From: Planctomycetota bacterium
GTDB lineage: Bacteria > Planctomycetota > Phycisphaerae > WQYP01
DNA length: 64,000 nt
NCBI GenBank assembly: GCA_021810145.1
Contig: JAJZJL010000004.1
Span: forward strand, 3,849 to 67,848
Direction of reading: 5' to 3'
Shown here: positions 5,198 through 20,144 of the stretch, piece after piece
Layout of the letters: the number at the start of each line of letters is the position of its first letter
Numbering within the stretch: the first letter of the stretch is position 1
Program-made: the position numbers and the translations under genes
The notes under the pieces: generated by a model
The model's database searches: none
What the model was told of the DNA's origin: nothing
Seen by the model: only the letters and a program-made list of their open reading frames with translations

Positions 5198-7801
<2,604 letters not shown>

Positions 7802-8190
7802 TCAAAATAAGCCTGATTTTTCCGCTTTCCTCGCCAGGAAATAACAAAGTCAGTATACCGTAAAATCGGTAATTTTCCCAGCGCTAAATCAGGTTGAATA
7901 AAAATGCCCCGCTTTCTTCTGCCGGCAACTTTTTCAGCGACAGGGCTTGGGCGTTGTAATCAGGCGTGGATGCATCCGTACCGGGAAATATCACGGCTTT
8001 TCCGTTGCGCCGATATCCGTTCTACTTGTGGAAAATTCACTCGCTGGGGCCGAAATGTTAGTCGCCCGTTGGACCCCAATGGCCCGGATATGCCTTGCGA
8101 ATCATTCAAAAACCAGAATCATCTCAATGCGGTTGCCAAATCCGACGGCAATTCGAAATCATGGTCACTTGCCCAGCGGCTCCGCAATCG

Positions 8191-8517
8191 TATGGGTGAG
8201 CGTGGTTTGGCCGGCCTGCCGCGAACGCGGCAGGGTGACCGCAGGGAGCATGTGAGCAGTTTGGTCAACCGAGATTCGGCAATTTAGTGGAGCGTATAGT
8301 TCCGTTATTCCGCGATTCGGGAGATTTGCTCATTTAAATATGCAAGCCATCCTATTGATTGCCACTATTTGTCGCATAAGCCCTCAGATGCAGGCAAGCA
8401 TATCCTCAATGACGGCCTTTTGGCCCGCGCTTAAACTTGGTCTGCTGTGGCTTGGCGGCGGAGCGATTGGCCAGTCTGTTGGCGATTCCTTCATCAATCG
8501 CGGCGGCCAGGGCGTGC
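8191..8517. repeat. Direct repeat copy 1 (attL/attR-like), ~98% identical to 19818..20144
   Basis: Identical over ~325 bp except about five substitutions. Contains an orphan copy of the uvrB 3' end. Confidence 0.9.
8406..8517 (-). pseudogene. Orphan 3'-terminal fragment of uvrB (last 37 codons) inside repeat copy 1
   Basis: Minus-strand translation ends ...HALAAAIDEGIANRLANRSAAKPQQTKFKRGPKGRH, identical to the C-terminus of intact UvrB at 20033. Upstream of 8517 the reading frame is unrelated to UvrB. Confidence 0.8.
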
Positions 8518-9042
8518 CTCCTTCGCCGTCGGTGTGGCCTGCGGCCAGGCCCCGCAGGCGTTTTGTTGTCGGTAATGGCCTCTTGGTTTGCGACCGTTTT
8601 CCTTGGCGCAAGTGGGTGGCCAGCCGGCAGCCCGAAGGAGACCCGATGCGAAAAAATCATTTGCATCGTTGTGCATCCCGCACCGCGGCGATTTCGGGGG
8701 TTACGTCAGGTTTCCGGTGCCCCCGCTCAGTCCCCTCGGAAAAGCCAACATGTACGGGAAATAAAAAAAGTGATTTTCTGCTTGCTTTTTTGTTTTTTTT
8801 TTAGTGCTAGTATTACGTTAATGTGTTGATTTCCGCGAGATCATCAATCCCCATATCCTGCTGATCCGCGGGGATACAAAGCCGCATGTTTCGGCATGCG
8901 CGGCACCGCACTGCCGGAAGGCACATGTTAGAGGGCGAGGGTTTACATATATAGCCGCCGGAGAAATTCGGCGTGATACGCGTTGAAGCGTTTTTGTTGT
9001 TCGTTGGCCGCCGTTCGTTAACCATTGCGACTGCGTGGAGAC

Positions 9043-12000
9043 ATGAACAAACGAAGCAAAATCCTTCCCGTGATGGCAGTGGCCGTGGCGATAATTGGAT
9101 TATCGGTATGGGGATGGATTTCGTTGTTCAGCCCGGCTGGCAGAAAGTCTCCCGGTGCCGCCGGAAATCGGGGCGGCGTTGGAATGCAATCGCGGCCTTC
9201 CACGCCCGAGATGATGTCGCCCGCCGAAGTCGCCGCAATCAAGATACCCCGTGGCATTCACCTCGCCAGTTTGCCGTGGCCCTCCGGCGGTGAATTGCCG
9301 AAGGAATTTCACCTGGCGCAACTGCCCTGGCTGCATGACCGTGGCGCGGCGGATATCAGCCGGTTACACATCATTGCCTCTTCAGGCTATGGCACCGGTG
9401 CCTTGGCGAATCCGCTGCATTTAGTCCACCGGGCTTATGTGCCATGGCCGAAATTTCCCGGCTTGACGTTGCCAATAACGGGCAAATTCGTCACGGCCCT
9501 GTGCCGGGATAGTGCCGGAAATATCTGGATTGCCACGGAAGACCATGGGGTTTTTTGCTACAATCCGTCCGCGCCGAAGGGCAGACAGATTCAGCAGTTC
9601 ACCAGACAAAGCACCCATGGCCAACTGGGTAATAACAATATTTATGCATTAGCCTGTGACAACCACGGACGAATCTGGGCCGGCACGCTTAACCATGGTG
9701 TCAGCGTGTATAACGGCCGACGGTGGCAGGCTTACGACATGGTGCAAAATCCGACAAAGCATGTCCTGGCCGGGCCGTTGGGCGATCATGTATTTGCCCT
9801 GAAATTCGACACATTCACCAACCAGATGTGGATTTGCACGGAGGCGGGAATATCTATATATCAGTGTAATCAACGAGCAACGAGCAACGAGACGCTGCGC
9901 TCAACGAACAACGATACACGGCAGAAGCCAGGAGTTGGGAGTGGGCAGTTAGAAGCGCCTGGAAACGCTCCGCTTCGCAATTCCACTCCTGCAACCTATA
10001 ACCTGTCACCTGTAGTCTTCACTGCCGGCACCTGGCACTACCTGACACAGGCGGACGGTTTGCCCCAAAATCCCGATTGCATCGCGTTCAACCCAAACGG
10101 TACGGTCTACGTGGGCACGCAATGTGATGGGGTCGCCATTGCAACGGTCAACGAACAACGAGCAACGAACAATGGCCAGCATGGGAAATCGGGAGTTGGA
10201 GGTGAGAAGTTAGAAGTGTTCGCAAACGCTCCGCTTGCAAAGGCTACGCATCCCCGTCCACGAGTTCCTGGCTTTCATTCCGCCGTGTCCCATGTCACCG
10301 CTTTATCCTATAACCGGCCAGCCTCAGTCTCCGCCGCATATCAGTGGCGTGTTGTTACCGGCCCGTGGAAAATGCCGTTGACCGCCACAGGAAAGGGCCT
10401 GCCGAGCAATCTGATCAACGCCATTGTCTTTGAACCCAACGGCACGCTGATTGCCGGAACCGACGGCGGAATCGGGGTTGCAACCAATCAAAACGCAGCG
10501 TTCGATTCCTCCCCGGCGGATTGGACGTTTATGCGCGGCCGGGATCTCACCGCCAAAGTGGCGGGGTTGTGGCACCCACCCCACCATTGGAAGGCCCCAT
10601 CTCGGAAGGTGTTAAACACGCTGCCGATGGAGGATTACACAACAGCGTTGGCGATTACAGAGAACAGATTACAGGGGAAGACCAACTTATGGCTTGGCCA
10701 TCGGCGGCGCGGCGTTGATGTGTGGCAGTACAACACAGCAGGCAAAATAATCAAGCGCTGGCAAATCCACGAGCCGCAAATCGGCAATTATGTCACCTCC
10801 CTGCTGCCTCTGCCAGGCGGAGCCATGGCGGTGGGCACTTATGGCAAAGGGGCATCGATTATCATGCTGCCGGGGGCAAGTGATGCATGGAAAAATCCCG
10901 ATCGCACCGCCATCCAAACTCATGCGGCCCCCGGCTTTGCTGGGGCGAACGCTCCCACCACCGGGGGACAGGCGGTGCCGGATGGCACCCGCGCCATTCA
11001 CGAGCCCAAACCAGCGGCGGCACCCAACGTGCGGCAACTCGCCGCGTTGTACCAAAGCCTGCTGAAGAATCCTGTTTCGCAGCAAATGATCGGCCCGCCA
11101 GTTGTTCCGATTACCGATGACTGGCGAACCCAGGGAAGCTGGCTGGGGAGGTATGGAAGGTATTGGGCGTGCCTGTTTGCGTGCGGCATGCACGGAGGCT
11201 ACGATTTCGTGTGGCGGCCACGGAGCGTTAGGCTCCGCCATAGTGCAGCCATCGGCCCGCATCGCAGAACGGGCGATATTGTCCAATTCCACACCACGTG
11301 GCCTGCCAGTGCCAGGAAACGTGTGTTGGAGCTGCCCGAGGTGTATCTTGCCCAACGGATTTCCGCCCACAGGGCTAGCCGGAAGAAGGACCGAAGGGAA
11401 ACCGAGCTCGACGATCACGGCGAGACATACCCCTTGGATTGGCAGGGGCCCGGTTTATATGTCTATTTGCATATTCCGCCGGGGGCTTACACGCTGTCAC
11501 TTTATTTCTTCAATAAAGATGGCCATTCCGAGAACAACCGTGATCGCGATTATGTGGTTTCCATGATACCCGTGTCCGCCGGATACCATTTCGGCACCGC
11601 CTCCCGTCCCAACACCGCGCCGCTGGCGAAAATGCGGGGGATCAGCCAGAGCCGGGTGGTGAATTTCTGGGGCGGGGTGTGGAAACGCTTTCTGGTGCGC
11701 GGGCCGGTGAAGTTGGCGATTCGCGTCGCCAAAAATTATTCGTTCAACACCATTCTCCAGGCGGCGATGCTGGACCCGCTTTCGCAACACCCAGCCCCGT
11801 ACTACTATGGGTACGCAGCATGGCAAGCCCACGAAAGCCAGCGGGGAGCGTTCCGCGTTCGGCAGGCCTCTGCCTTGCGAAGCGGGCAATTCTCCGATGA
11901 TGCTCCCGCCAGCCAAGCCGTGTGGCATCGGCATCCTGCCGATGATCCAACAGTCAACACTGGCATAATGCGATCTCAGAACATCCTGAACCTCCTCAGT

Positions 12001-12462
12001 TTACTGGAACACCGCGATCCCGCCACTTGGGCGGCCGGCCAGCAATTAGCGTGCAGCATGATCCTGCGCTGGTGCGTCGCGCGATACGGAGCAATTCCAA
12101 AAAATCCACAGGCTGCGGGGGTCGCTGAAAAATGTTGCTACGCGCTGGATTTATTCCGCCGCTGGGAAGCACTGGAGAAATCGCGCGGTGTGCTGACTTC
12201 AAGGCAGATCGAAAAGGGGCTGCGGCTGGGTGTGTACGCCGCTTCCTTTGCCGGCCTCTCGTTCGGCTTGATTCGGTGGCGGACATCGCAGTTGCGCCAT
12301 CCGTATCGCGTGCTGAGCACGTCCCAGCGGCTGGATTCATCGTGGTGGCTGTTGGACGGGGGCGAAGGGGCTGGAGGCAACAGGGATCGCCGGCGTGGCA
12401 CTGGCGGCGGCGCGCCACGAAGCCGACCTGGCCCCCTCGGCGGGGAGATAAGACGGAAATGA
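9043..12462 (+). CDS. Large membrane-anchored/secreted protein with two-component-regulator-propeller (Reg_prop)-like beta-propeller repeats
   Basis: N-terminal hydrophobic anchor MNKRSKILPVMAVAVAIIGLSVWGWISLF. Repeated blades of the form GNIWIATEDHGVFCYNP / GRIWAGTLNHGVSVYNGRRWQAY / NQMWICTEAGISIY. Two in-frame low-complexity inserts. Gly/Arg-rich C-terminus. Start uncertain (TTG at 9025 or ATG at 9043). Confidence 0.5.
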   Translation: MNKRSKILPVMAVAVAIIGLSVWGWISLFSPAGRKSPGAAGNRGGVGMQSRPSTPEMMSPAEVAAIKIPRGIHLASLPWPSGGELPKEFHLAQLPWLHDRGAADISRLHIIASSGYGTGALANPLHLVHRAYVPWPKFPGLTLPITGKFVTALCRDSAGNIWIATEDHGVFCYNPSAPKGRQIQQFTRQSTHGQLGNNNIYALACDNHGRIWAGTLNHGVSVYNGRRWQAYDMVQNPTKHVLAGPLGDHVFALKFDTFTNQMWICTEAGISIYQCNQRATSNETLRSTNNDTRQKPGVGSGQLEAPGNAPLRNSTPATYNLSPVVFTAGTWHYLTQADGLPQNPDCIAFNPNGTVYVGTQCDGVAIATVNEQRATNNGQHGKSGVGGEKLEVFANAPLAKATHPRPRVPGFHSAVSHVTALSYNRPASVSAAYQWRVVTGPWKMPLTATGKGLPSNLINAIVFEPNGTLIAGTDGGIGVATNQNAAFDSSPADWTFMRGRDLTAKVAGLWHPPHHWKAPSRKVLNTLPMEDYTTALAITENRLQGKTNLWLGHRRRGVDVWQYNTAGKIIKRWQIHEPQIGNYVTSLLPLPGGAMAVGTYGKGASIIMLPGASDAWKNPDRTAIQTHAAPGFAGANAPTTGGQAVPDGTRAIHEPKPAAAPNVRQLAALYQSLLKNPVSQQMIGPPVVPITDDWRTQGSWLGRYGRYWACLFACGMHGGYDFVWRPRSVRLRHSAAIGPHRRTGDIVQFHTTWPASARKRVLELPEVYLAQRISAHRASRKKDRRETELDDHGETYPLDWQGPGLYVYLHIPPGAYTLSLYFFNKDGHSENNRDRDYVVSMIPVSAGYHFGTASRPNTAPLAKMRGISQSRVVNFWGGVWKRFLVRGPVKLAIRVAKNYSFNTILQAAMLDPLSQHPAPYYYGYAAWQAHESQRGAFRVRQASALRSGQFSDDAPASQAVWHRHPADDPTVNTGIMRSQNILNLLSLLEHRDPATWAAGQQLACSMILRWCVARYGAIPKNPQAAGVAEKCCYALDLFRRWEALEKSRGVLTSRQIEKGLRLGVYAASFAGLSFGLIRWRTSQLRHPYRVLSTSQRLDSSWWLLDGGEGAGGNRDRRRGTGGGAPRSRPGPLGGEIRRK

Positions 12463-12516
12463 AGGCGGTGTGTCGCCGCCTCGCGCGTGGTAAGCATTTT
12501 TCAGGAGTACTCGTTA

Positions 12517-12962
12517 TGGAAGCGACCAAGTTGGTAAAAATCACAGGAAAGTGCAGGGTGAGCAGGAGTTTGAGAGCACTCGCCATGGCGGCAGCCCTTG
12601 TGGCGGGATTTGCTGCATTAGGGGCGGGCGGAGGATTGCTGGTTGCACAATGCGAGAATGTTGGCATTCAGACAATTAAGGCCGGTACCATCGATCCACA
12701 CTATGAGACACTTATCGACTGCAGCGCCGATGGCTGGGTAACTTGGAACTGTAAGCAATCCTATTTTGTCGCGACCAAGGACTTTAACCAGTGTTGGGGA
12801 TCGGATTCGGGGTATAACTGCGTAAAGGATGGGAATCAGGGAGGGAAAGAATACTATGGCGGGACATGCAACGATTCCCCCCCCGGAGGGTGCAATGCAC
12901 CTGTAGCCAGTTATCCGACCAGCGTGCCCAACTTTGCGCTCCAGCACTGCACTGGCGGATAA
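12517..12962 (+). CDS. Small secreted cysteine-rich protein (10-11 Cys in ~105-aa mature part)
   Basis: Strong RBS aggag 8 nt before ATG 12517. Basic N-region plus hydrophobic stretch ALAMAAALVAGFAALGA. Mature part rich in Cys/Trp/Gly/Asn (CENVG...DCSADGWVTWNCKQ...NQCWGSDSGYNCVKDG...GGTCNDSPPGGCNAP...HCTGG). The longer track ORF from 12132 overlaps the preceding gene and is rejected. Confidence 0.5.
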
Positions 12963-13302
12963 AATACCCCGGGGCCGCGCACCAGTTGCCACGCAGCCCC
13001 GGCCGCACTGCGCTAAGCTTTTGCCCGGCGGGGACTGCGTCCTTGCTCGGCGGTGTGCAGCGCCTCGACGTGAGTGGCAATCGTGCGCATGGATCATGGC
13101 CTGGGTGCGGGGCCACGGATAGCTGGTCGGCGGCGGGCCGAATTTCCGCCACTCGCGGAATTGGAAGAAAATCAGGGACGCCGCAGCGAGTGAAATCGGG
13201 CCGCCGGAAACTCGCTCTGGCTCCCCTGCGTCGAGCGCTCCAGGGGCGGGCCTCTGGTGAGCGACCGTCTTTAGGTCATCGGTTTAATCGGAGGTAACTA
13301 AC

Positions 13303-14508
13303 ATGTGTGCCCTTAACTTGCTTCGCCCTGCATTGCTATCCGCGAACCGCTGTGTGCGGATCGCAGTTGCGGCTACGTTTATCTCGGCGGCGCTCTGGTG
13401 GTTCAACTACACTGCCATTGCCTCAGCATCGGGCCGAACCCTCGTCGCGGGCTCCCCCGCCGCCAGCCATACCCTCGCAGCGGCGCAATGGAAGTCCCTC
13501 CTGCGCGATGCGGCGAAGAGGATATCGACCTTGCGCCTGCAGGCGGCGTTTCGCCGCCAGCTCTACATCTCGCCCGCGGTGGCTCGGCAGCTCAAGGATG
13601 GGCTGGAGCGTGGGTTCCCAAATCAATCATTCAAAGATTTCCATCCTCGAGTTGGACGTGTTGTAAGATCGCAATTGATCCATCTTGACTGGGCAGTTGC
13701 CAGGGGGCTGGTCAATGTTCGGAGGATACAGACCGGCGGCGTGACGGCACTCGGCCCAAGTGGGAAGCTGCGGTCGGGGCTCACGCGAGCGTCGATTTGG
13801 GTCGTCGGTCGGCGGTTCTACTGGTGGGCGTATCCTGGCGGGGGTGTCTGGAACGTCTCGGTCGGACGGCGGAACGGTGCCTGGTTCACGGGGGCTTGGC
13901 CATACACATCCCGGGGCCTGGGCTTATTTGATATTTCCGTGTACTGGGTGCCGTTCGCGACGCCAATAGTGCCGGCCGTTGGGCTGACCAAACTGCCGTT
14001 GAGCTACCGCTTGGCCAGCCAAAAGATCGACTCATCCACCGGGCTTATCAGGCTAAGATACATCGAACTCTACGACGGGAAAGTTAACCGCGTGCCGGGC
14101 ATAGGGACCTGCGAGTACCTATACGTGCTCCGGCTGGCTGGTGGGTTGCAAATTTATCACAAGATATGGGAGGCCGTTGGCGGACCGAAAGGGACCATCC
14201 GGTTCTTCGAGGCTGACTTCAAGAAGTTCGTGAAAACCGGTGGAATTTGGTTCCCAACGCGCATTCGCGAACGCAACTGGCCTAACGGCGCGAAGCACGC
14301 CCAACCCGACGAAACGATAACGATAAAGCACGTCGTGGTTAACGGAAGCTTCCCGCGGAATACATTCCGCTACACACCGCCATTCGGGGCGATGGTCACC
14401 GACACGCGAACCAAGCATGCGAGCATTTATTTTGTCGGATCGAAAAACCCGAAAATTCCGCCAACCACGGTACCTGCGGTGGGAACCAAAAGGGGTGCCG
14501 GCAAATGA
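13303..14508 (+). CDS. Secreted hypothetical protein (Trp/Arg-rich), first gene of a translationally coupled four-gene operon
   Basis: ggagg RBS 8 nt upstream. N-terminal signal/anchor. No motif I can name with confidence. Stop overlaps the next start (ATGA). Confidence 0.45.
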   Translation: MCALNLLRPALLSANRCVRIAVAATFISAALWWFNYTAIASASGRTLVAGSPAASHTLAAAQWKSLLRDAAKRISTLRLQAAFRRQLYISPAVARQLKDGLERGFPNQSFKDFHPRVGRVVRSQLIHLDWAVARGLVNVRRIQTGGVTALGPSGKLRSGLTRASIWVVGRRFYWWAYPGGGVWNVSVGRRNGAWFTGAWPYTSRGLGLFDISVYWVPFATPIVPAVGLTKLPLSYRLASQKIDSSTGLIRLRYIELYDGKVNRVPGIGTCEYLYVLRLAGGLQIYHKIWEAVGGPKGTIRFFEADFKKFVKTGGIWFPTRIRERNWPNGAKHAQPDETITIKHVVVNGSFPRNTFRYTPPFGAMVTDTRTKHASIYFVGSKNPKIPPTTVPAVGTKRGAGK

Positions 14509-15620
14509 TACGACGACATTCTCTTCTGTTCTGGGTGGCGCTTGCTGTTGCCGCAACTTCTGCCGGAGCTTGGATGGTGCGGGCAATGTGGCCGGCGCCG
14601 GTGGCGGAATTCCTAATTGGCCAGCCGAGAAAGGTTGCGGCGGTGGCGATCAATTTTGGCAAGGTCTACTACGGCGAGCGGGCAACCCGCGAGCTAACGG
14701 TTGTGAATTCCTCCAGGCACCACCTCACGTTGGGTGAAAAGACGGGATGTGGATGCACGCGGATTAAGATACTCAATCCGGCCATTCCACCCGGCGGCCG
14801 GTCGGCGGTGCGGGTAAGCTATACCGGGATAGACCCAGGGCGGACCGGACCGGCAAGCCAACAATTCATCATTTTTGATAATGGCAAGAAGCTGATACCC
14901 GAACTCCGTGGGGTTGTCCATGCCGTTCTCGCTCAATCGCTTCGCTTCAACCGGACCGAAATCTCTTGGCGTAACCTTTCAGGCGAGCCTGCCCATGGCG
15001 GCCAAGCTGTGGTGGCCGAGAATGTTTCGGGTGTCCCAGCCAGCGTTGCGTGGAGCGCCGGTGGCGAAGGGCGGTTTTTCTCGATCGCACCGACATCCGC
15101 CGTGATCGCGCCCGGCGCGAGCGTGAGGTTCCTGTTTCGGCCGTCGAGGGCGATAGCTGCAGGGCACCGGTCGGAGGCGGAAGCGATCGTGCTTCGGGGA
15201 ACCCTCCAATCCAACGGGAGGCCCGTACGGCTCAATTTCACGTTCGACGCCTACGACACGCTGGAGCCAGTTTTGGAGGCAATTCCTGGGGCTCTGGTGC
15301 TATCACCAAGGCCGGGTGTCCGCTTGGTTTCGGAGGTTGTCCGGCTCGTAACGGGGCCGGGAAACGGGAAGGTACCGCACGTGCTTGCGGTGGCGACCAG
15401 TAGCTCCGCACTTCACGCCGTCCGGGAGGATGGAGGGAGGATTTTGGTTTCGCTGCACCTGCCACACGGCCAAGTGGCCTTTCTGGGTAATGTCCGCGTT
15501 ACGTATGTTTATGGCGAGGCCAGGTCAGCCTTGGACATCCCCGTTTTTGCGGCCCCGGGTCTATCCGTTCCGCGGCAAACTCGTCCCTCGCCAGTGCGGG
15601 CCGATGGAGAACAGGAATGA
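14505..15620 (+). CDS. DUF1573 domain protein (Ig-like, GCGCT motif), secreted
   Basis: Signal peptide. Segment FGKVYYGERATRELTVVNSSRHHLTLGEKTGCGCTRIKI matches the conserved SCGCT core of DUF1573. ATGA overlap with flanking genes. Confidence 0.55.
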   Translation: MIRRHSLLFWVALAVAATSAGAWMVRAMWPAPVAEFLIGQPRKVAAVAINFGKVYYGERATRELTVVNSSRHHLTLGEKTGCGCTRIKILNPAIPPGGRSAVRVSYTGIDPGRTGPASQQFIIFDNGKKLIPELRGVVHAVLAQSLRFNRTEISWRNLSGEPAHGGQAVVAENVSGVPASVAWSAGGEGRFFSIAPTSAVIAPGASVRFLFRPSRAIAAGHRSEAEAIVLRGTLQSNGRPVRLNFTFDAYDTLEPVLEAIPGALVLSPRPGVRLVSEVVRLVTGPGNGKVPHVLAVATSSSALHAVREDGGRILVSLHLPHGQVAFLGNVRVTYVYGEARSALDIPVFAAPGLSVPRQTRPSPVRADGEQE

Positions 15621-16738
15621 CTGCGACCCTCCAGCGCGTCCCCACCCCCGCCAGCGGTGAGGAACTGGCTCCGGCGAACCGTGCGGGCGAGAGCCGGGAA
15701 CGGCGTGGGTTGCCGTGCGTCGTCGGCACGACCGTGCTGGCGGCTGCCGCGTTAAAGTCATGGGGATTTGACCTCTTGCCCCTCGCCCACGGAAGCCCCG
15801 CTCTGGCGGCCATCGGGCCAGCGTCGCTGATCGCCTGGGAAACCTTCCTCGGCCTCTGGCTCCTCAGCGGTACCTTACCAACCGCGGCGCGGCGGGTGGC
15901 CATTGGCTGTTTCGGCGTGTTTGCTTGTTATACCTTTTATGAAGCGCTCGCCGGAAAGGCTGATTGCGGTTGCTTTGGGCAGGTGCATGTGAACCCGTGG
16001 TTGACATTTATCCTTGATGTTTCAATTGTGCTGGCGCTTACGTTCCTTAGGAAACCTGACGCCCGCAAGGTTCCGCCCTCCCGATGGGCGCAACGGAAAT
16101 GGCCGGTGGCCGCTGCGGCGGCAATCGGATTGCTGGTCGGGGCTACCGTGGCCATGCTGCATCCGAAAGTTGTTGCCGCCGCCAACGGCCTGGCTTCCGC
16201 AGACAATGGCAGAATTGTCATTCTGGAGCCGCACCAATGGCTGCACCACCGCCTGCCGGTGCTGAAACATATCGTAAGCCAGCGCAGCAACAGGTCACTG
16301 GGCCGACAATTGGCAACCGGCAATTGGGTCATCATGTTCTATCATGCCAGTTGCGAAGAGTGCCGGCACACCATTCCCATTTATGAGAATCTCGCCCGGC
16401 AGAATGCCGCATCCGGCACTGACACGCACGTCGCCTTTATCCGTGTGCCACCGGATTTGACCGGGCTCGGCGCGGCAACCGGCTCCGGCACGGCGGGCCC
16501 GCAAATATTCCACGCCAGTCCCGCGCTGCATGGAAATTTGGACAACAGTCATCAGTGGTTTGCCACAACGCCGGCGGTCATGCAACTGAGAGACGGAACC
16601 GTGCTCCGCGCCGCCACGGGCAGCAGGGCAATGAATTTGAAGTGGCTTGGTACAACGGTTACCGGCCAGGGGCCGGGAATCAAAGAACAATGGCCAGAAT
16701 ATAAGGACGATGGCGTAAGCGATGGTCGCAGCAGTTGA
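15617..16738 (+). CDS. MauE/DoxX-like membrane domain fused to thioredoxin-like (MauD/TlpA-like) CxxC domain; putative periplasmic thiol-disulfide oxidoreductase
   Basis: N-terminal multi-TM region with the MauE-type CGCFG motif (AGKADCGCFGQVHVNPW). C-terminal thioredoxin-like segment with CEEC active-site motif (WVIMFYHASCEECRHTIPIY). Confidence 0.55.
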   Translation: MTATLQRVPTPASGEELAPANRAGESRERRGLPCVVGTTVLAAAALKSWGFDLLPLAHGSPALAAIGPASLIAWETFLGLWLLSGTLPTAARRVAIGCFGVFACYTFYEALAGKADCGCFGQVHVNPWLTFILDVSIVLALTFLRKPDARKVPPSRWAQRKWPVAAAAAIGLLVGATVAMLHPKVVAAANGLASADNGRIVILEPHQWLHHRLPVLKHIVSQRSNRSLGRQLATGNWVIMFYHASCEECRHTIPIYENLARQNAASGTDTHVAFIRVPPDLTGLGAATGSGTAGPQIFHASPALHGNLDNSHQWFATTPAVMQLRDGTVLRAATGSRAMNLKWLGTTVTGQGPGIKEQWPEYKDDGVSDGRSS

Positions 16739-17879
16739 AAAATCTCGAACTCAAGGCATTGGCATGGAACACGCTCGCTTCATCCGGCCTCCGCGTTGCG
16801 CCAGGTCCCCGCAGTGCCCAATGGCCGCACAGGTAATCCCGCTTGTGCCCGTGAGCCAAAACCCTCGGCGCAGGGTGCCTTATTATTCCAACGCCTACGT
16901 CCCTGGTTCTGCCTTCTCGCCTGGTGCCTTCACCATCATTGAACTGCTGACGGTGTTATCCATCATCGCGCTGTTGATTTCCCTGCTGCTTCCGGCGCTG
17001 GCCAAGGCCCGACAAAGTGCCGAGGCGGTGGTGTGTGAAAGCAATATCCGGCAACTGCTGACCGGATTGCGCGAATATGTGCAGACGAACAAGGGGCTTT
17101 TTCCGCTCAACGGCATTCTGTTTCCGCATGTGGCCATGTTTCCGCCGTATTCCGATGCCGCTGGCGGTGCGGACTACACGCTCCAGCAGGTGTGGGGTAC
17201 CACCGCTGATTACAATCTTTATTATGGCGCGTTATATCCGTTCATGGCGGGGATTCCCCAGGCACCGCCCGTGCCTGATCTGCTGAATTCCAGCGGCCCC
17301 AATACAGGCAACGGCGCGGCGGCCACGTTGAATCTCAATCCGGAGCGCAACAGGTTCGCCCGGGTTTTCATGTGCCCGCTGGACAGCGGCCTGCGTTCCG
17401 GCGCGGATGCCCTCCGCCTGGCCCCCGGTGGACGGACGGTTCTGGTCGGCGCGGGTTCCGGGGGCGGATTCTGGAGCTATTCGATCAATGCGCTGTTGAA
17501 TTCCCAAGCCGGGGTGTTGGCGGATATCTATGGCACGGGTGCCGGTAACAGTGCCCGCTTTCGGATCCCGTGGTCCTATCCCCTGCGTGACGCCACGATC
17601 ACCAATCCGAAGTGTGTGGTCTTCATTGAAGAATCAGCCCGGAAATCCCCGTTCAATGACGAAGTGATAGATCCGGCCGGATACGAGGATCGGGATCATC
17701 TTTCATCGCGGCACGGCGGCGGCGGCAATCTGGGCTTCTGGGACGGGCATGTGGCGTGGATGTCGCAGGTGGAATATTCTTCGGTGCCCGATCCGACGCG
17801 CAACGCGTCCGGCCCGGCAGCTCTGGCGGTGGCCATGCAGTGCCCGGTCTTCCGAATGTTTATCCCTGACGCGCGATAG
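16722..17879 (+). CDS. Prepilin-type N-terminal cleavage/methylation domain protein, DUF1559 (H-X9-DG) family
   Basis: Type IV pilin-like leader/hydrophobic segment G|FTIIELLTVLSIIALLISLLLPAL. C-terminal exact H-X9-DG motif (RHGGGGNLGFWDGHVAWMS). Start codon uncertain: the long N-terminal extension overlaps the previous gene. Confidence 0.65.
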   Translation: MVAAVEKSRTQGIGMEHARFIRPPRCARSPQCPMAAQVIPLVPVSQNPRRRVPYYSNAYVPGSAFSPGAFTIIELLTVLSIIALLISLLLPALAKARQSAEAVVCESNIRQLLTGLREYVQTNKGLFPLNGILFPHVAMFPPYSDAAGGADYTLQQVWGTTADYNLYYGALYPFMAGIPQAPPVPDLLNSSGPNTGNGAAATLNLNPERNRFARVFMCPLDSGLRSGADALRLAPGGRTVLVGAGSGGGFWSYSINALLNSQAGVLADIYGTGAGNSARFRIPWSYPLRDATITNPKCVVFIEESARKSPFNDEVIDPAGYEDRDHLSSRHGGGGNLGFWDGHVAWMSQVEYSSVPDPTRNASGPAALAVAMQCPVFRMFIPDAR

Positions 17880-17975
17880 GGATGCGGCCGGTAGGGCGGG
17901 CAACGTCGAGCGCGTATGACAGAGCTTGGGCGAACGCCCGATGACAATGAGAAACGCAATGAAAGGAGTCAGGCT

Positions 17976-18815
17976 ATGAGAACAGGTACCGCTGCCGCGT
18001 TCATCGTCATTCTGTTGCTGTCAGCCCCCGGCATCGCGGAAGGTGCGCATTCGCCTCCCGCCAAAGTGAGCCTGCAGCAGGCCTTCCGCCGGATTGACGC
18101 GGAACTCGCCTCTCCGCCACCAGCGCGGAAGGCGGAGTTGGACATCCGGAACATGGTGAAAGGCCATAGCTTTCAGTGCCGTTTTCTGCTTGCGAGCCGC
18201 TGGCTTCCGGCGTTGATGTTAAAAAAGCAATACCCGTTTGTGGCGCAGCTTTCAAAGCGGGAAATCCTGGTCATCCCCCACCGCACCAGAATCATTCAAC
18301 AACTCCTGGCGCTGCGTGTGGAGGCGCTTCTGGGCATGGGAAAGCCAAAGAAAGCGATGGTATGCGCGAAGGAGCTGTTTAATTTCTGTACCATGCGGGA
18401 TACGGCCCGGGCGTTGGCATTGGTGGCGCGGTGTCTGGCGTCCGCAGCGCCTGATGCCGCGGGGGCGATCCGACGATTTAAACGCGAAGAGATCGCCGGG
18501 GCCGCTCTCCCCATTGCTGGATATCCCGCGCTGGGATGCCCGATTCTGGCGGCCGTCAAGGCCGGGGATGGGGCGTATGCGCGCCGGGCATGGGGAATTA
18601 CCGGCCAGAGCTATAGTGATCTGTTTGACCACGGCAATCTGTTGCTTCTCGCTGGAAGGCCACGTGAGGCGATGGCGTGTTTTAATGCGGCCTATCTGGT
18701 AGCCGGCAATTACGGGCAGGTGGTACGCGCGGCCGGCCGTATCGCGGCATGCATCAAGGCGGAAGATGGAACCATTGGCAGGGCCAATGCCTGGGCACGC
18801 GGAGCCGGCCAATGA
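17976..18815 (+). CDS. Secreted helical (TPR-like?) hypothetical protein, paralog A
   Basis: aaaggag RBS. Signal peptide MRTGTAAAFIVILLLSAPGIAEG. C-terminal block ...CIKAEDGTIGRANAWARG shared with the next gene. Confidence 0.45.
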   Translation: MRTGTAAAFIVILLLSAPGIAEGAHSPPAKVSLQQAFRRIDAELASPPPARKAELDIRNMVKGHSFQCRFLLASRWLPALMLKKQYPFVAQLSKREILVIPHRTRIIQQLLALRVEALLGMGKPKKAMVCAKELFNFCTMRDTARALALVARCLASAAPDAAGAIRRFKREEIAGAALPIAGYPALGCPILAAVKAGDGAYARRAWGITGQSYSDLFDHGNLLLLAGRPREAMACFNAAYLVAGNYGQVVRAAGRIAACIKAEDGTIGRANAWARGAGQ

Positions 18816-18927
18816 CCGGATTTCGGGGGCTCGGATCCGAATTGTGCCATGTTGCAGATGAAGGCGGCGTTCCCGGCGCGTGCACCGATTGGCCAAAGCC
18901 GCGGAGGCGCTGCCGATAAGGAGTTGA

Positions 18928-19818
18928 ATGATGCGAATCAAGGTTACAGCAGTCTTTACGGTGTGGCTGGTGGCCACCGGTCTGGCCGCCCCGGAACTGA
19001 CGGCTGTGCCACCGGCCACGGCCCGGCCCAATGCGGCGGAGTTGCGGAGGCTCGCCTGGGCCAAAGGCTTGGTTCCGCGGTTGGCCGGCGCGGGTGCCGC
19101 CGCCCGTAAAGCGGCGTTGTCACAGATTACCTGGGAGCTGCGGACCCAACCGTATCCGACGGCACCGCTGGTATACCAATACTGGCTGCCACCGCTGATG
19201 GATCATGGTCATTACCGCGCTGTGGCAAACCTGGCGATGCGAGGTATTCTCGCGGCACCCGCATATACATTCGCCATTGATCGTCTGCTGGTTTTTCGGA
19301 TTCAGGCGTTGGCGGCAATGCATAAAAACGCGGCGGCCCTTCGCGACGCCAAGAGCCTGTTCGACGTATGCCGAATGCAGGATACCGGAACCGCACTGCT
19401 GATTCTGGATCAACGCCTTGATGCGGTGTACCGCAAGCATCCCAATATCGTGCGGCGGTTTGTGCTGGAGGAACGGTCGGGAGCAAAAATGCCTTCGGCT
19501 GGTGGCGGGCCCATCGAAAGATCCCGTGTGCTGGCGTCGATTCAGGTTCACGCCGGTCCCTACCTGGCAAGGCTGAAAGCAATCCACAGCACCGGGTCGT
19601 CCGCTCTGATGGAGAAGGGGGATTTATGGCTGCTGGCGGATCAACCGGCCAAAGCGCTGCGATGTTTTCAATCCATGGAGGCTTATGCGAAAACGTCGCG
19701 GCAGTTGCTGTTGCTGGAGAGATTTATCTGTCGGGCGATCAGGGCGGAGGACGGCACGATTGGCCGGGCCAACGCGCATCTTCTACGGGCGATTCAAGGT
19801 GCAACCCACCCGCAATAA
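18928..19818 (+). CDS. Secreted helical hypothetical protein, paralog B
   Basis: aaggag RBS. Signal peptide MMRIKVTAVFTVWLVATGLAAP. Shares ...RAIRAEDGTIGRANAHLLRA with paralog A and overall collinear similarity. Its stop codon abuts repeat copy 2. Confidence 0.45.
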   Translation: MMRIKVTAVFTVWLVATGLAAPELTAVPPATARPNAAELRRLAWAKGLVPRLAGAGAAARKAALSQITWELRTQPYPTAPLVYQYWLPPLMDHGHYRAVANLAMRGILAAPAYTFAIDRLLVFRIQALAAMHKNAAALRDAKSLFDVCRMQDTGTALLILDQRLDAVYRKHPNIVRRFVLEERSGAKMPSAGGGPIERSRVLASIQVHAGPYLARLKAIHSTGSSALMEKGDLWLLADQPAKALRCFQSMEAYAKTSRQLLLLERFICRAIRAEDGTIGRANAHLLRAIQGATHPQ

Positions 19819-20144
19819 ATGGGCGAGCGTGGTTTGGCCGGCCTGCCGCGAACGCGGCAGGGCGACCGCAGGGAGCATGTGAGCAGTTTGGTCAACCGAG
19901 ATTCGGCAATTTAGTGGAGCATATAGTTCCGTTATTCCGCGATGCGGGAGATTTGCTCATTTAAATATGCAAGCCATCCTATTGATTGCCACTATTTGTC
20001 GCACAAGCCCTCAGATGCAGGCAAGTGTATCCTCAATGACGGCCTTTTGGCCCGCGCTTAAACTTGGTCTGCTGTGGCTTGGCGGCGGAGCGATTGGCCA
20101 GTCTGTTGGCGATTCCTTCATCAATCGCGGCGGCCAGGGCGTGC
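19818..20144. repeat. Direct repeat copy 2 (includes the functional 3' end of uvrB)
   Basis: ~98% identical to 8191..8517. Covers uvrB codons 20033..20144 plus 215 bp downstream of uvrB. Confidence 0.9.

Follow-up and report, generated by a model that had tools for sequence, protein, structure and literature searches.

The question raised by this locus is whether a small cysteine-rich secreted protein and the membrane-bound thiol oxidoreductase encoded downstream of it belong to one system. The locus lies in a 64,000-nucleotide (nt) stretch of the genome of a Phycisphaerae (Planctomycetota) bacterium (contig JAJZJL010000004.1; hereafter the window), and the part described here is an island on the + strand (9025–19818) with eight same-strand open reading frames (ORFs), labelled A to H. 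Gene B encodes the small protein, gene E a fusion of a MauE-type membrane domain with a thioredoxin (Trx)-like domain, and genes C, D and F candidate partners. An initial annotation had proposed a self-contained periplasmic disulfide-forming module dedicated to the folding of B. Its observations were essentially right, with three small errors, and its interpretation survives, strengthened by comparative evidence; domain assignments, conservation of the cysteine-rich ORF and its association with the fusion gene were each examined, and none of the three refuted it. Based on sequence comparisons and structure models, we consider it somewhat probable that the locus is a single instance of a modular cassette distributed across the Planctomycetota, which encodes a small secreted disulfide-knit protein together with its own oxidative-folding machinery.

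Gene E (15617–16738) encodes 373 amino acids (aa). The motifs CGCFG and CEEC reported initially are literally present, and in an alignment of 17 diverse homologs C117-G-C119-F-G, C246, C249 and T318-P319 are invariant. Hidden Markov model (HMM) searches with the families named initially gave a mixed outcome, with DUF1573 and DUF1559 above and MauE, Thioredoxin and TIGR04294 below their cut-offs. The MauE match of E (PF07291) reached 26.4 bits against a cut-off of 27 and was therefore 0.6 bit short. Among 71 clusters of E homologs, nearly all have a precomputed PF07291 annotation (more than 60 homologs), and four are named MauE/DoxX family by NCBI; E matches NCBIfam BT_3928 at 3e-11. Since the C-terminal domain matched Pfam Thioredoxin only weakly (E 0.08), it was tested structurally. 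The AlphaFold2 model shows five transmembrane (TM) helices, and residues 200–340 have predicted local distance difference test (pLDDT) values of 86–95, with a strand at 236–242, the motif C246-E-E-C249 and a helix at 247–266. In Foldseek searches this domain matched ResA, DsbE, DsbF and FetE at probability 1.0, the best matches being of the ResA/DsbE/TlpA class, and the E family profile matched PDI active sites (E 7e-4). The C-terminal domain is thus confidently predicted to have a thioredoxin fold with a CxxC motif and a cis-Pro loop, and both domain assignments of the initial annotation are supported, the MauE one being borderline for E itself. In the model, the CGC motif lies between helices 88–111 and 127–143, that is, in the TM3–TM4 loop. 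The basic loops of E (1–30, ~85–95 and 144–165) place the N-terminus and the TM4–TM5 loop in the cytoplasm, so that, by the positive-inside rule, the CGC motif would be on the outer face and both the CGC loop and the Trx domain in the periplasm.

To explore the surroundings of this fusion, 39 related loci, cited below by L numbers, were fetched with a profile of E. In 35 Planctomycetota loci, the DNA within 5 kb of E was scanned for signal-bearing ORFs on the same strand that measure 100–260 aa and have a Cys content of at least 5.5%; the expectation was taken from the rest of the same loci. There were 23 such ORFs, compared to 4.9 expected (P ~3e-9), and 22 of the 35 loci have a qualifying small Cys-rich ORF (6–20 Cys) near the MauE-Trx gene. 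Furthermore, the four matches scored as background are themselves located beside DUF1573 genes. In most cases a DUF1573 protein with a conserved CxC and a member of a new ~380-aa family are also present. The predicted association of the fusion with Cys-rich neighbours was therefore borne out. In the close clade the gene order is RegProp, small Cys-rich ORF, ~380-aa protein, DUF1573, MauE-Trx and pseudopilin. Every close-clade locus has an ORF of 119–218 aa with 5–10% Cys between A and E, followed by a ~370–400-aa ORF and a DUF1573 protein. These Cys-rich ORFs share the leader MF.KI..RF..R...A.CVAGL..G.GG...AQ, and the number of Cys in the mature part is even in 12–13 of 13 proteins. Distant loci, in which E is 28–37% identical, contain the same four components on one strand in permuted order; they belong to Tepidisphaerales, Gemmatales, Pirellulales and Sedimentisphaerales. 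Across homologous loci, the Cys-rich ORF is conserved in position, size, signal and Cys richness, as the initial interpretation demanded, while its sequence is not. Two of the Cys-rich ORFs have features of their own. The tandem module of L015 includes a 188-aa ORF (L015:2286-2852) that has 17 Cys and a leader resembling the twin-arginine type (SRRAFLSRLA); it is MauA-like in size and leader and has no match to the methylamine dehydrogenase (MADH) light chain. In L037, a membrane glycosyltransferase of the PMT family (dolichyl-phosphate-mannose protein mannosyltransferase-like; L037:4724-6709) is located inside the module and adjoins a 204-aa ORF with 20 Cys, a hint that the product may be glycosylated there.

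Gene B (12516–12962) encodes a 148-aa precursor of a putative secreted cystine-framework protein. Its ATG is at 12516, one nucleotide before the start given initially. The strong ribosome-binding site and the signal-like leader noted at first were found again, as an AGGAG 8 nt upstream and a basic, then hydrophobic sequence that ends in LLVAQ↓C. This is a Sec-type hydrophobic leader, and the window clade has an AXA↓Q-type signal. The mature part measures ~104 aa, close to the ~105 aa proposed, and contains eight Cys rather than 10–11; a ninth is located in the leader. Gene calls on 11 contigs give the identical ORF. A word-indexed search of 5.8 billion proteins returned only B itself, and tblastn against the related loci found no homolog beyond identical strains. 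An exhaustive HMMER search of 1.84 billion representatives retrieved four small relatives with 35–44% identity, as well as repeat-rich giant proteins whose matches look compositional. Seven Cys of the mature part are invariant in the four small homologs and the loops between them vary; the eighth, C79, aligns in P0081 only. No conserved Trp, His or Met and no CxxC metal motif was found in the B alignments. Pfam and NCBIfam searches of the B-like proteins gave no family; matches to 'Sublancin' were sub-threshold, fell on the Gly-rich leader and were disregarded. In four of five B relatives (P0081, P0084, P0085 and P0087) the leader ends with a canonical lipobox, LLLA[S/A/G]↓C, and some members of the family may thus be lipoproteins. 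The L007 counterpart of B has an insertion before the Cys of LLVAQ↓C.

The four genes downstream of B follow in the order described initially (ORFs of 401, 371, 373 and 385 aa). Genes C and D (overlap at 14505) and D and E (15617) overlap by 4 nt each, with ATG starts that form ATGA junctions. The third ATGA junction proposed, at ~16722, is not present: the ATG of F at 16722 overlaps the stop codon of E (16736–16738) by 17 nt, or, with the start at 16764 used in public gene calls, the two genes are separated by 25 nt. B is followed by a 340-nt spacer and is therefore not translationally coupled to the other genes. The predicted folding of this spacer is no more stable than that of shuffled sequence (z = 0.03). 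A GC-rich hairpin predicted directly after the stop codon of B (12969–13002, + strand) was considered, as a terminator or attenuator, as a hallmark of a structural gene and dropped, since an unusually stable downstream hairpin follows only 5 of 24 B-like genes and the feature is not conserved elsewhere.

The comparison with the nearest relative, L007, revealed how variable this region is. The flanks are 92–95% identical in DNA, whereas nucleotide similarity to L007 is absent from a 3.6-kb segment (12226–15835), which comprises the end of A, all of B, C and D, and the initial ~73 codons of E. Protein identity drops from 88–100% outside (F 98%, G 95%, H 100%) to 35–42% inside (C 35%, D 42%), and for B no similarity is detectable. 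The swap thus included the N-terminus of E along with B, C and D. Two or three module copies occur in each of six genomes, and L015 and L016 contain tandem, partly decayed ones. Because B, C and D are exchanged wholesale and several copies occur per genome, the product is most likely, judging from these sequence patterns, a polymorphic antagonistic or recognition protein of a bacteriocin-like kind. A chimeric ORF in the tandem copies (L015:169-396; the same in L016:1148-1375) joins a DUF1573 head, up to GCGCT, to a B-like tail. This tail (...VPTNIPNFTAAICTGG) resembles the C-terminus of B in the window (...VPNFALQHCTGG), an apparent recombination scar between module genes.

Gene fusions in other loci connect the components further. 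A C39 peptidase is fused to Redoxin in L024 (L024:6727-8190) and to DUF1573 in L036 (L036:12628-14166), and a Trx-C39-DUF1573 fusion in L040 (L040:65-2122) joins C39, Trx and DUF1573 on the E polypeptide. In these three loci and several others, the N-terminal hydrophobic signal of the Cys-rich ORFs is followed by ADELSQVIGG, LTDAELGMIFGK or LELESIFGD; the motif EL..I.GG was found in the B-like ORFs of L023, L024, L033, L035, L036, L040, L042 and L044. Through the fusions, E, D and leader processing are connected in a single pathway; they also identify the small proteins as secreted products that bear a leader. In these fusions C39 is joined to periplasmic-type partners and not to an ATP-binding cassette (ABC) exporter, which implies leader cleavage outside the cytoplasm. 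The C39 copy of L040 seems to be without the catalytic His motif.

Gene D (14505–15620) encodes 371 aa, with an anchor at the N-terminus and a DUF1573 (PapD/Ig-like) domain, which scored 32.2 bits (PF07610; cut-off 26.1). The GCGCT motif, confirmed at residues 81–85, holds its only two Cys, and the CxC is kept in 21 of 23 module-associated DUF1573 proteins. DUF1573 also appears among the selenoprotein families, with UGC (PMC9312934), and this usually marks a redox-active cysteine. The initial annotation had regarded the DUF1573 and DUF1559 proteins as partners in display or secretion. For DUF1559 the link to secretion stands (see below), whereas for DUF1573 the conserved CxC suggests a part in redox chemistry or processing rather than in display.

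Several observations weigh against the proposal that E oxidizes B as its dedicated client. ResA and CcmG/DsbE, the top matches of the Trx domain, are mostly reductants, and its acidic dipeptide C-E-E-C (mostly C-x-E-C across the family) is closer to CEPC of ResA than to CPHC of DsbA; the redox direction of E may therefore be oxidative or reductive. Cys parity is mixed in the distant loci. The double-glycine-type EL..I.GG leader is not found in B of the window. HMM searches and a C39 iteration detected neither a C39 peptidase nor an ABC exporter in the island, nor did HMM searches detect the core genes GspD, GspE and GspF of a type II secretion system (T2SS); likewise, an iterative search from three clear C39 domains found no further members in the window clade. 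The AlphaFold2 model of C, built from eight sequences, is unusable (pLDDT 38.5). Thirteen of the 35 loci have no qualifying Cys-rich ORF, many of them being on truncated contigs. Finally, a preprint argues that MauE is a generalist (bioRxiv 10.64898/2026.03.05.709764).

The reductant-like features of the Trx domain agree with a different scheme, in which the Cys of B bind a metal or cofactor or stay reduced and E acts as a reductase or isomerase of the ResA/CcmG type, B being a periplasmic protein active in metal binding or redox chemistry and not a disulfide-knit one; earlier work cited in the same preprint had also proposed MauE as a reductase. We regard this scheme as quite unlikely, since MauE acted as an oxidant when it complemented a dsbB deletion, the mature Cys counts are even in 12–13 of 13 close-clade proteins, conserved His, Met or CxxC metal motifs are lacking in the B alignments and the loops of B are hypervariable, unlike cofactor sites.

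The loci that lack a Cys-rich neighbour bear on another possibility, namely that E is a general housekeeping disulfide enzyme, a MauE-type DsbB fused to its DsbA, with B as one client at most. The generalist role argued in the preprint, the many phyla that have MauE and no MauA, and the frequency of Trx fusions are in line with it. A housekeeping enzyme would hardly be expected, however, in two or three paralogous copies per genome, each beside its own different Cys-rich ORF, as in the six genomes mentioned above. Neither does it fit the adjacency that outlasts the permutation of gene order across taxonomic orders, the union of E with C39 and DUF1573 in L040, the joint replacement of the N-terminus of E with B, C and D, or the location on a repeat-bounded island of higher GC content. 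A housekeeping role is thus fairly unlikely.

Gene F (16722–17879) encodes a 385-aa DUF1559/H-X9-DG pseudopilin-like protein. It exceeded the cut-off for DUF1559/SBP_bac_10 (PF07596; 25.6 bits, cut-off 23.3) and stayed below those for TIGR04294 (16.7, cut-off 19) and TIGR02532 (13, cut-off 16.3). The exact H-X9-DG motif is present at the C-terminus (HGGGGNLGFWDG, H-GGGGNLGFW-DG), as is the prepilin-like motif G↓AFTIIEL at 16926, and the mature part has 4 Cys. The segment before GAFTIIEL (55–69 residues, 16722–16925) is far longer than usual pseudopilin leaders; candidate start codons are located at 16722, 16764 and 16821. A prepilin-motif ORF directly follows E in 12 loci, including the window. 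In L026, L027 and L028, which represent a complete genome (CP087563.1, two loci) and one Phycisphaeraceae metagenome-assembled genome (MAG), the E homolog is located between GspF and GspG in a complete T2SS operon (region ~6800–19350) that also contains GspE, GspK and the secretin. The DUF1559 link thus points to type II secretion. In L028, a DUF1573 protein is encoded upstream, as is a Cys-rich ORF of 139 aa; L027 has three large proteins (402–662 aa, 4.5–4.9% Cys) just upstream of GspE.

This arrangement could also mean that E serves a secretion or pilus machinery and not B, oxidizing or isomerizing the disulfides of the pseudopilin F or of T2SS parts. Models for such a role are TcpG in the TCP pilus operon and TrbB/TraF in F-type transfer operons, and the Trx region of E has weak NCBIfam matches to TrbB and TraF-like proteins. 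DUF1559 proteins beside E have 2–5 Cys. The GspG-like protein and the minor pseudopilins of the T2SS loci have 0–1 Cys, though, and therefore cannot be disulfide clients. Moreover, no pseudopilin is located beside E in many loci with B, C and D (L010, L015, L020, L024 and L029–L033), and neither the enrichment of Cys-rich ORFs nor the C39 fusions would be explained. Overall, we judge a machinery-serving E unlikely.

Gene C (13303–14508) encodes 401 aa with a signal peptide (ASA↓SG) and belongs to a new, divergent family of ~380-aa proteins. Its members are mutually undetectable in pairwise comparison and join as one family on iteration. They share the C-terminal motif G.WFP...vN.p...F..FP.G..V.D, many have a C-terminal membrane anchor, and the gene is almost always found beside a B-like gene. 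Only two of 14 members matched LolA_like, and faintly (PF17131; best E 0.026), so that a LolA-like fold appears possible from sequence; the family profile matched no PDB sequence.

If E and B do form a dedicated folding system, the following mechanism can be proposed. B would be exported by Sec via its N-terminal signal. In the periplasm, the Trx domain of E (CEEC), in the role of DsbA, would join the eight Cys of B into four disulfides by oxidation. The Trx domain would then be re-oxidized by the MauE CGC loop of the same polypeptide in the role of DsbB, with electrons passing to quinone. D would act as an Ig/PapD-like periplasmic partner, either a thiol-disulfide carrier or isomerase or a substrate-holding subunit; this role is proposed because its only two Cys form the conserved CxC. 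In some lineages D would also bear the C39 peptidase that removes the double-glycine-type leader. C, which co-varies with B, might be its specific binding partner, namely an escort, an immunity protein or a receptor. The pseudopilin F could link the folded product to the type II secretion pseudopilus for release through the outer membrane. The module is not self-contained for export, and the initial proposal of a self-contained disulfide-forming unit, supported by comparative and structural evidence as regards folding, falls short in this respect. A bolder version would describe a so far unreported class of polymorphic, conotoxin-like secreted proteins of Planctomycetota with a private thiol relay from the MauE CGC over the Trx CxxC to the DUF1573 CxC, a co-evolving ~380-aa escort or immunity partner, T2SS release, and a client-partner cassette exchanged between strains. 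We put this forward tentatively and consider it possible rather than probable.

The closest functional precedent for E is the work of Gonzalez et al. (bioRxiv 10.64898/2026.03.05.709764), in which unfused MauE from two phyla (Calditrichota and Thermodesulfobacteriota) replaced DsbB in E. coli. The active site is the CGC between TM3 and TM4, quinone is probably used, and Trx fusions account for 8.2% of InterPro MauE entries. E likewise has the MauE membrane core, the CGC in the TM3–TM4 loop and a fused thioredoxin-superfamily domain. It differs in that it is multi-copy, island-borne and tied to a hypervariable putative client. The statement in the initial annotation that a fused Mau-like pair is uncharacterized must be withdrawn, given these catalogued fusions and the replacement of DsbB via the CGC loop. 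The preprint does not mention Planctomycetota, gene neighbourhoods, DUF1573 or dedicated clients, and our literature search found no paper that combines MauE with DUF1573. Thus the enzyme class is already known and the fusion catalogued; what is new is the module with its hypervariable candidate clients, as well as the parts proposed for DUF1573 and the C family.

Similar to the mau clusters, the module places a MauE membrane protein and a CxxC Trx-like partner beside a small Cys-packed periplasmic protein, which in the mau case depends on MauE/MauD for maturation. This likeness suggests that the cluster might be a degenerate methylamine or amine dehydrogenase-like system, with B as MauA-like, C as MauB-like and E as the MauE and MauD pair. 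MauA is a ~188-aa precursor with 12 Cys and MauB has ~400 aa, so that the sizes of B and C run parallel, and the gene set includes MauE and Trx. Ten B-like proteins gave no match to the Pfam MADH light chain, though, even at E values up to 1, and the lack of a conserved Trp in the B alignments excludes the tryptophan tryptophylquinone cofactor. No MauG or MauB domain was found in the eight island proteins, and B and C are hypervariable and multi-copy, unlike an enzyme. With MauA, MauB, MauG and the conserved Trp all missing, this explanation was rejected and is effectively excluded; compared to mau clusters, the functions of the module are also fused and its client is hypervariable.

The bacteroidetocin clusters offer a second comparison. 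There, the activity of a 4-Cys peptide with a double-glycine leader depends on both a 5-TM protein and a thiol oxidoreductase encoded beside it (Coyne et al. 2019, PMC6671954). Common to both systems are a small secreted Cys-containing product beside a polytopic membrane protein and a thiol oxidoreductase and, in the module relatives L024, L036 and L040, the double-glycine leader and C39. Bacteroidetocins, however, are 42-aa peptides with 4 Cys and C39-ABC export, whereas the module product has ~100 aa, 6–14 Cys and a Sec-type signal; the module is devoid of an ABC exporter, and C39, where present, is fused to periplasmic DUF1573 or Trx. Neither MauE nor DoxX is mentioned in the bacteroidetocin supplements. 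Homologs of mauE and mauD have also been noted in candidate clusters for RiPPs (peptides synthesized ribosomally and modified post-translationally) of Streptomyces (PMC7794033).

Other systems share parts of the logic. In VKOR-thioredoxin fusions and in DsbB/DsbA, a membrane oxidase with a periplasmic Cys pair re-oxidizes a CxxC carrier, as proposed for E, for which quinone use is putative; VKOR-thioredoxin fusions likewise have oxidase and carrier in one chain. VKOR and DsbB are quinone-linked four-helix proteins of an unrelated membrane family, and MauE has a single CxC in contrast to the two Cys pairs of DsbB. Private oxidoreductases encoded in operons include PedC (pediocin), BdbA/BdbB (sublancin), TcpG (TCP pilus) and TrbB/TraF (F pilus). 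In these cases, too, the operon supplies a private thiol-disulfide enzyme for the Cys product that it encodes; the enzyme families are different, and DUF1573, the C family and cassette replacement are absent. The conserved leader and Cys framework with hypervariable inter-cysteine loops recall the conotoxin and defensin gene families. As these are eukaryotic and unrelated in sequence, the likeness is one of evolutionary mode and not of homology.

The remaining genes and the borders of the island complete the picture. Upstream of B, gene A (9025–12462) encodes a 1145-aa membrane-anchored protein with Reg_prop beta-propeller repeats; its homologs precede the module in L007, L010, L013, L014 and L017–L021. 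Within A, a 52-nt imperfect direct repeat (9924–9975 and 10185–10236; 77% identical) encodes a repeated Gly/Pro-rich segment between propeller regions. Downstream of F, gene G (17916–18815; 299 aa) has a weak TPR-like match and is a paralog of gene H (18928–19818; 296 aa; 35–39% identity). Relatives of G and H recur beside modules in distant loci: they are found near E in L032, and in L033 and L042 as longer proteins directly upstream of the Cys-rich ORFs. G and H may thus belong to the module. No curated family was assigned to B, C, G or H in Pfam and NCBIfam, and a PADLOC scan for anti-phage defence gave no match for any of the eight island proteins.

The island lies amid housekeeping genes, between gyrB and uvrB, and has a GC content of 0.59–0.64 compared to ~0.53 in its surroundings. 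It is bracketed by 300-nt direct repeats (8192–8491 and 19819–20118) that are 98% identical and 11,627 nt apart. Each repeat consists of intergenic DNA and the last 86 nt of uvrB; the right copy contains the true 3' end of uvrB, and the C-terminal 35 codons of this gene are duplicated at 8409–8513. No integrase was found within the island, and together with the repeats this fits a Campbell-type insertion by single crossover. The L007 contig both starts and ends inside the 300-nt repeat. The identical locus is present in the MAG GCA_027428675.1 and in several metagenome assemblies, and homologs bear the names Phycisphaerae or Planctomycetota.

Only recently was MauE recognized as a third way in which bacteria form disulfide bonds, and we know of no natural MauE client outside methylamine dehydrogenase. 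The module offers genetically linked candidate clients and a fused carrier domain for this enzyme. Should the polymorphic clients and the thiol relay prove real, they would be natural dedicated clients of the newly recognized MauE pathway, and DUF1573, a large family of unknown function, would obtain its first role, in redox chemistry or in substrate holding. Testable predictions follow for two families that have no assigned function: DUF1573, in which the CxC is conserved, and the C family of ~380-aa proteins. By the same reasoning, one could search for disulfide-rich bacterial proteins that are invisible to sequence similarity. Interbacterial antagonism and secretion are poorly understood in Planctomycetota, and our results suggest that these bacteria diversify a secreted cystine-knit protein by cassette exchange.

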